The notes under the pieces were generated by a model that saw only the letters and a program-made list of their open reading frames with translations, was not told where the DNA came from and did not search any database. Shown here piece by piece: positions 52,874-53,519 of a DNA stretch of 64,000 bases; positions within the stretch are counted from its first letter, which is position 1; every line of letters begins with the position of its first letter. This stretch comes from Escherichia coli. Its GTDB lineage: Bacteria > Pseudomonadota > Gammaproteobacteria > Enterobacterales > Enterobacteriaceae. The position numbers were made by a program, and so were the translations under genes. The stretch is taken from NCBI RefSeq assembly GCF_003334785.1, contig NZ_QOWV01000009.1; one strand, 5' to 3'.

Positions 52874-52890
52874 TTGCTGATTTTCCTTTA

Positions 52891-52930
52891 ATGCCGGATG
52901 CGACGCCTGCCGCGTCTTATCCGGCGTACG
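52891..52930. repeat. REP element downstream of rdgC
   Basis: ATGCCGGATGCGACGCCTGCCGCGTCTTATCCGGCGTACG. Confidence 0.75.
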
Positions 52931-53030
52931 AAGCCACACCAGGCATATAATTATTCGCTACGGCGAGCAATAATTTTTAGCGCAGCAATATTATGCGTTT
53001 TACGCTGTAACTTGCTCCATGGACGTTGTG

Positions 53031-53312
53031 TCATTGTTTTTCCTCAAGCCGGTGACGCGCTTCACTGCGAATTTTCCGCGTTGCCCCGGTTTTCACTAAA
53101 TCACGTAACAGCGAAAGATCGGGTTGTTCGACAAATAAGAGTAATGATGGATCCTCTTTTAACCACGCCGTTTTCACATCGGCAGCCAGCTGTGGATTAT
53201 TAATAGCCAGCGACCGATCCTGAGGCTCAGTCAATGTCGTTAACAACAACGCCGGGGTATGTGCGTTGCGCAATGCCGTTTGGCGTAAATGATCATTGCG
53301 ACTTTGCAGCAA
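53031..53312 (-). pseudogene. Decayed ORF between rdgC and ppnP, possibly the K-12 ykiA locus (tentative)
   Basis: ORF track 93 aa begins at a TTG, not ATG; the same frame stays open upstream to a stop at 53382-53384 with no start codon in between (RSPDIVAELATIKDKSDDEWWRALLQSRNDH...); Leu/Ala-rich helical-repeat-like composition; no Shine-Dalgarno seen. Confidence 0.3.
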
Positions 53313-53519
53313 TGCACGCCACCATTCATCATCTGATTTATCTTTTATCGTAGCCAGTTCCGCAACAATATCTGGAGATCTTCACTGATATTTATATCAA
53401 CCTTGATAAATTATGAATATATCGGAAATTGAAAAAATCGCAGCAAAGGAAATATTATTATGGGCTAAAGAAAGGATATTTCAGAAAAATGCCCTCCCGT
53501 TCAAGGGGAAGGCGAGGAA

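Follow-up and report, generated by a model that had tools for sequence, protein, structure and literature searches.

The start-less ykiA frame between ppnP and rdgC of Escherichia coli is very probably the 3' remnant of a 2,280-bp gene lost by deletion

Between the genes ppnP and rdgC, the chromosome of Escherichia coli carries on the minus strand a short open frame without an evident start. We studied this frame in a stretch of 64,000 nucleotides (nt) of E. coli DNA (the window), whose positions are used for all feature coordinates given here. The open reading frame (ORF) listing places a 93-amino-acid (aa) ORF with a TTG start at 53031..53312, as stated in the earlier note on this DNA. Translation of the extended frame showed that it is open from 53381 to 53034, i.e., for 116 sense codons, and is closed by a TGA stop at 53031-53033. 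The whole feature (53031..53381, minus strand), here called ykiA', is delimited by its translation, by existing annotation, by a match to the Pfam family DUF2773, and by a nucleotide identity of 96% with the 3' end of the gene that is intact in E. coli O145. The 23 extra open codons (RSPDIVAELATIKDKSDDEWWRA) located 5' of the TTG reach as far as an in-frame TGA at 53382..53384 (minus strand). They include no ATG and no GTG, as had been noticed before, and the only near-cognate codons among them are ATT, CTG, and ATA. The upstream TGA, which was taken in by the end coordinate of the earlier note (53384), is part of the ancestral 5' untranslated region (5'UTR) and is found at the same place in intact alleles. 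The TTG itself (53310..53312, minus strand) is the first canonical start in the frame; in the ancestral protein it encodes the internal residue Leu667 and is not the native start. The frame is rich in leucine (17%) and alanine (10%), in line with the composition described earlier.

The reverse complement of window 52581-53981 matches NC_000913.3 408000-409400 of strain MG1655 exactly over 1,401 nt, a segment that includes ykiA and ykiD. In that record, 408609-408950 (window 53372-53031) is annotated as the pseudogene ykiA (b0392), and 408947-409030 as ykiD (b4732), the next gene after it. The feature is identical to K-12 ykiA in sequence and position and has the same neighbours, with ppnP upstream and both ykiD and rdgC downstream. 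The K-12 annotation begins at a GAT codon (window 53372), which is the limit of protein homology, whereas the open frame is three codons longer and extends to 53381. In other genomes, the Prokaryotic Genome Annotation Pipeline (PGAP) labels the same stretch 'DUF2773 domain-containing protein; incomplete; missing N-terminus'. The name ykiA, which the earlier note had proposed as a guess from position, is therefore confirmed by sequence and map identity to MG1655, and its description of the frame as a pseudogene remnant agrees with both the missing-N-terminus flag of PGAP and the pseudogene flag of RefSeq in K-12. The pseudogene status of ykiA is already known and catalogued in K-12; a literature search found no paper describing the origin of the gene. 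We conclude with high confidence that the start-less frame is ykiA (b0392) and represents the non-functional 3' remnant of a 2,280-bp gene.

A frame of this size could also be a chance ORF without ancestry, and the absence of a canonical start is the only observation in favour of that view. However, DUF2773 (PF10971) matches residues 36-116 of ykiA' with E = 4.9e-46, over positions 1-81 of the 81-position model. When the 116-aa frame was used in a word-indexed protein search, the matches were confined to E. coli fragments of at most 130 aa and a 152-aa RdgC chimera, and included no ancestor. Among 1.84 billion representatives, which were searched exhaustively with HMMER, there was a 342-aa protein that is 96% identical across the whole remnant, together with proteins of 746-766 aa that share about 40% identity and match at their C-termini only. 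The short contig encoding the 342-aa protein carries SF0329, rdgC, and mak downstream, and hence represents the same locus. As the DUF2773 model is matched in full length, the 3' end of an intact syntenic gene is 96% identical at the nucleotide level, and the C-termini of distant proteins of about 750 aa are about 40% identical, the chance-ORF explanation is already refuted.

The search for an intact ancestor, suggested in the earlier note, led to a gene within E. coli itself. In O145:H28 RM9872 (locus L006), the order is ppnP, a gene for a 759-aa DUF2773 protein (WP_122986368.1; L006 2816-5095), a gene for a 151-aa SF0329-family protein, which overlaps the 759-aa gene by ATGA, and rdgC. The 759-aa gene is also intact in O157:H7, and strain WL297 (locus L015) has an intact allele with 91% identity, in which the SF0329 gene is intact as well. 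Outside E. coli, Escherichia sp. E4930, E. whittamii, and Escherichia sp. E1V33 carry intact genes at the same locus with 72-74% identity. A longer intact homolog thus stands at the orthologous locus in O145, WL297, E4930, E. whittamii, and E1V33. A scan of contigs with five sequences gave matches only in E. whittamii and Escherichia sp. E1V33; it used two N-terminal peptide patterns, so that distant relatives may have been missed. The intact protein shares its locus and promoter region with the K-12 remnant, and protein identity over residues 651-759 is 94-97%. Features absent from the remnant are its ATG, predicted signal peptide, beta-helix, and about 460 further solenoid residues; K-12 lacks codons 1-356 and 363-650. 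A secondary fusion as the origin of the 759-aa form is very unlikely, given that at least three Escherichia lineages have full-length forms and that distant homologs of about 750 aa exist.

The closest full-length relative outside Escherichia is a 746-aa protein with 49% identity, encoded on an Enterobacterales-like contig (L005 6001-8241). It sits elsewhere, between sprT and a gene for a galP-like transporter, and has no SF0329 partner. Therefore, the two-gene pairing is not universal.

The way in which the gene was lost can be read from the deletion junctions. In blastn alignments, the K-12 sequence from ppnP to window 53378 corresponds to O145 up to 1 nt before the ATG (98.4% identity), and window 53372-53003 corresponds to the last 342 nt of the O145 gene and onward (96.2% identity). 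Exact-match mapping further showed that 18 nt at the junction (TCTCCAGATATTGTTGCG; 53361..53378, minus strand) are identical to codons 357-362 of the intact gene (SPDIVA; L006 3884-3901), and that this island between two deletions is joined via a shared TTGCG to codon 651 onward. The origin of the island in codons 357-362 also explains why all remnants have DIV, whereas intact genes have DIF at residues 647-649. A reading of five nt at the junction, CTCCA, as filler was rejected in view of the 18-nt exact match. Relative to the intact allele, the first deletion in K-12 comprises 1,070 nt, from 1 nt before the ATG through codon 356, and has no long direct repeats at its flanks. The second comprises 864 nt (288 codons), is in frame, and lies between copies of a 12-nt imperfect repeat, GATATT(G/T)TTGCG, located at codons 359-362 and 647-650. 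The 116-codon frame is accordingly composed of one codon derived from the 5'UTR, six codons (357-362), and 109 codons (651-759), and the 23 codons before the TTG are a mosaic of one codon from the 5'UTR, six from residues 357-362, and 16 from residues 651-666. The native start and the N-terminal region have been lost, with definable junctions. In calling the feature a decayed ORF, the earlier note was right about its remnant status, but the gene was lost by deletion and not by point decay, as the K-12 frame contains no internal stop.

On this basis, we propose that the ancestral ppnP-rdgC locus was a two-gene operon in which the 759-aa gene was followed, with an ATGA overlap, by the 151-aa SF0329-family gene. 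In the lineage leading to K-12, the 1,070 nt that begin 1 nt before the ATG and extend to codon 356 were lost, and the 864 nt were removed in frame, probably by recombination between the GATATT(G/T)TTGCG repeats. As a result, the native 5'UTR now adjoins codons 357-362, which run on into codons 651-759, and neither a start codon nor a signal peptide is left. The SF0329 gene was cut down to ykiD afterwards, when an in-frame deletion took out 372 nt between AGTTAC(A/G)GCG repeats. The order and the mechanism of the two ykiA deletions are those that we infer from the junctions.

Allele frequencies were determined in 5,426 complete E. coli genomes. The K-12-type junction is present in 4,484 of them (about 83%) and the ykiD-type junction in 3,490, while the 5' part of the intact gene was found in 447 genomes, including O145:H28, O157:H7, and O157:H16, and the SF0329 interior in 921. 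Four states of the locus were recognized: both genes intact (O145, WL297), a ykiA remnant with an intact SF0329 gene (STEFF_1), a ykiA remnant with ykiD (K-12), and a deleted ykiA remnant with a frameshifted SF0329 gene (NIST0056). The NIST0056 allele derives from the K-12 type, because it still carries the K-12-type junction sequence. The remnant has acquired an internal stop in STEFF_1 and a one-codon deletion in CREC7837, and clusters of its predicted proteins have shifted 3' ends. In E. coli, the gene at this locus has undergone repeated inactivation. Nei-Gojobori estimates of the ratio of nonsynonymous to synonymous substitution rates (dN/dS) over 113 shared codons are 0.17-0.30 for intact pairs and 0.39-1.0 for remnant pairs, with few substitutions (7-25 per pair). 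As separate observations, XJ5.2 (L018 788-2076) has an independent IS1-mediated truncation of the gene or remnant, and strain 5444 has an independent IS1 insertion in it.

These data bear on the question of whether ykiA' encodes a selected truncated protein, which would have 93 aa if made from the TTG, or more if made from a near-cognate ATT or CTG, and would form a five-hairpin helical-repeat module. The frame is open in K-12 and in most of the strains sampled, the region is transcribed, and the junction allele is very common (4,484 of 5,426). A weak Shine-Dalgarno (SD)-like GGTGG precedes the TTG by 6 nt, with an anti-SD duplex energy of -4.9 kcal/mol. However, about 15-23% of random window positions match this strength, so that the GGTGG is indistinguishable from chance; the earlier statement that the ORF has no SD was roughly right, if slightly overstated. 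The high junction frequency is accounted for by inheritance of a single old deletion. Moreover, a product without the native start and signal peptide would be in the wrong compartment relative to the ancestor, one strain has an internal stop and others show loss of a codon, frameshifts at the 3' end, or absence of the entire remnant, dN/dS is higher than among intact alleles, and both RefSeq and PGAP call the feature a pseudogene. We therefore regard a selected truncated protein as highly improbable. Nevertheless, several points weigh against our conclusion that ykiA' is a non-functional remnant formed by two deletions. The K-12 frame remains fully open across its 116 codons, and the weak GGTGG is present before the TTG. 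The region is transcribed from an inducible promoter, and low-level translation of the 93-aa fragment may occur. The dN/dS values, based on 7-25 substitutions per pair, are statistically not decisive, although they are consistent with relaxed constraint. Finally, both deletions may stem from one complex event.

The intergenic region between ppnP and ykiA (53378..53519, minus strand) is the retained ancestral promoter region and 5'UTR, and it ends 1 nt before the site of the former ATG. Over 427 nt, this region has 98.4% identity to O145 (L006 2388-2814) in a blastn comparison. A crude consensus scan detected a sigma-70 promoter-like CTGAAA, 16-nt spacer, CATAAT (53457..53484, minus strand), located just after the ppnP terminator, an intrinsic terminator-like hairpin with a T-run downstream of ppnP that was found by sequence scan (53491..53513, minus strand). 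The same consensus scan gave no further minus-strand promoter-like site from 53457 to ykiD. Salscheider et al. cloned the intergenic region upstream of ykiA, made lacZ fusions, and determined the transcription start by 5' rapid amplification of cDNA ends (PMC3950696). In K-12, the ykiA promoter was activated by BglJ in an RcsB-dependent manner, and BglJ activation was lost upon mutation of a binding site whose centre lies 79 bp upstream of where transcription begins; ykiA was listed there as encoding a 113-aa protein of unknown function (PMC3950696). Sequence comparison shows that this BglJ-RcsB-activated region goes back to the 759-aa gene, whose promoter and 5'UTR K-12 has retained. A similar case is molR (yehH), which is likewise a pseudogene in K-12 and has a promoter that BglJ-RcsB can still activate (PMC3950696, Table 1). 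However, molR encodes an unrelated protein and was disrupted in another way, and it is a precedent only for a regulated promoter that outlives its gene.

Downstream of the remnant lies ykiD (b4732; 52951..53034, minus strand), which encodes 27 aa and whose start overlaps the ykiA' stop (ATGA). Alignment with strains that have an intact SF0329 gene identifies ykiD as a deletion scar, in which SF0329 codons 1-11 are fused in frame to the last 16 codons (136-151); the 372 nt (124 codons) between the AGTTAC(A/G)GCG repeats are missing in K-12. The intact 151-aa protein matches NCBIfam NF049912 (SF0329) with 93.7 bits against a cut-off of 60, and Pfam PF25753 with 6.9e-22. YkiD itself gave no match to the SF0329 profile NF049912, and its status as a scar rests on the alignment. 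The ykiD ATG has its own SD, GAGGA (-6.2 kcal/mol against the anti-SD), and the 27-aa protein has been detected in rich medium by immunoblot of a chromosomal sequential peptide affinity tag (PMC6001520). Its sequence differs among strains (RKTH or HKTH, or truncated to ...ARCS). In the E. whittamii lineage (L011 6277-6342; L017 6277-6342), there is an independent in-frame SF0329 remnant of 21 aa, MRLRRKTHNIAALKII(A/I)RRSE, with the ATGA overlap; in E. whittamii and E1V33 it lies downstream of the 759-aa gene, which is intact there. The SF0329 deletion of E. coli and the separate one of the E. whittamii lineage have in common that they spared the start codon and the final 16-19 codons, which may be due to chance (about 1 in 9 for both to be in frame) or may hint at a retained use.

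The arrangement of promoter, remnant, and ykiD raises a further possibility, namely that the remnant matters as RNA: it would form the 5' leader of a ykiA'-ykiD transcript that is under BglJ-RcsB control and gives rise to no real product other than YkiD. The promoter and 5'UTR have been kept at 98.4% identity, the K-12 promoter is active and BglJ-RcsB-dependent (PMC3950696), and YkiD is made in rich medium (PMC6001520). In addition, ykiD has a good SD of its own and the ATGA overlap with the ykiA' stop, and no other minus-strand promoter-like site was seen between 53457 and ykiD in the crude scan. On the other hand, that scan was a consensus search, expression of ykiD from the ykiA promoter is something that we infer from the arrangement, and YkiD is a strain-variable deletion scar whose own function is doubtful. 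We consider this role possible but tentative; it complements the pseudogene interpretation rather than excluding it. The most economical reading is that ykiA' is probably not translated and would be at most the untranslated leader of the ykiA'-ykiD transcript. Under the pseudogene interpretation, the remnant is still transcribed under BglJ-RcsB, and in this transcript it most likely forms a leader of ykiD with little or no translation.

Two other features were noted near ykiD. A REP-type palindromic element lies between rdgC and ykiD (52890..52935, no strand assigned). It was recognized by its sequence and by the only Rfam match obtained, a sub-threshold partial match to naRNA4 (REP-derived), outside the ORF, with 27.8 bits against a gathering score of 59.5. 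A plus-strand ORF of 101 aa with an ATG start (52898-53203) begins inside this element, runs antisense to ykiD and ykiA', and is probably spurious.

The nature of the ancestral protein was explored with an AlphaFold2 model of the 759-aa sequence, built from a nine-sequence alignment (predicted local distance difference test, 88; predicted template-modelling score, 0.75). In this model, residues 1-21 (MNRINILVICMVVFFMTGNACA) lack order and are hydrophobic, as would be expected of a Sec signal peptide. They are followed by a beta-helix at about residues 65-176 and by an unbroken alpha-solenoid at residues 186-758, of which the K-12 remnant constitutes the last nine helices. The suspicion in the earlier note that the frame is a fragment of a larger helical-repeat protein was therefore well founded. 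Repeated antiparallel helix pairs form the solenoid, as in HEAT-like and LRV proteins, and its nearest known counterparts are alpha-solenoids of the HEAT-like, alphaRep, PBS-lyase, and leucine-rich-repeat-variant (LRV) types, but a Pfam scan of the 759-aa protein gave HEAT with E = 8.5 and no LRV match, so that the protein may be called solenoid-like, whereas assignment to a named repeat family is unsupported by the HEAT, HEAT_2, and LRV profiles. NCBIfam has no model for the remnant or the 759-aa protein, except for a noise-level SpbR match. For the 759-aa and the SF0329-family protein alike, PADLOC gave no defence-system match and PDB sequence searches gave nothing significant. The 759-aa gene is relatively AT-rich, with a GC content of 42.5% compared with about 51% for ppnP and rdgC. 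Elsewhere, homologs of the SF0329 partner occur alongside Imm10 and SUKH-3 in arrays of small genes that are linked to integrases; these arrays resemble polyimmunity islands. In the intact 759-aa protein, the 81-position DUF2773 model spans residues 679-759 only, inside the continuous solenoid. The boundary of DUF2773 (PF10971) thus appears to derive from the K-12 pseudogene ORF and not from a structural domain.

What this study adds to the known pseudogene status of ykiA is the identity of the ancestor, the junctions of the two deletions, the allele frequencies, the apparent origin of the DUF2773 boundary, and the status of YkiD as a scar. For K-12 biology the impact is small, as ykiA is already flagged as a pseudogene, and the useful by-products concern annotation. 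The DUF2773 family is seemingly delimited by a pseudogene fragment, and the finding that a validated small protein, YkiD, is an SF0329 deletion scar calls for caution in small-protein catalogues. Any export and function of the 759-aa ancestor are putative. It is conceivable, though we think it unlikely, that the intact operon in O157:H7, O145, and E. whittamii is an undescribed envelope-related BglJ-RcsB module, consisting of an exported beta-helix/HEAT-like solenoid protein and its SF0329-family partner, and that K-12 has been left with a regulated transcript and a YkiD that was perhaps co-opted. What studies of 'ykiA', such as those of the BglJ-RcsB regulon, really address is an orphaned promoter, whose 759-aa gene enterohaemorrhagic E. 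coli still possesses in intact form.
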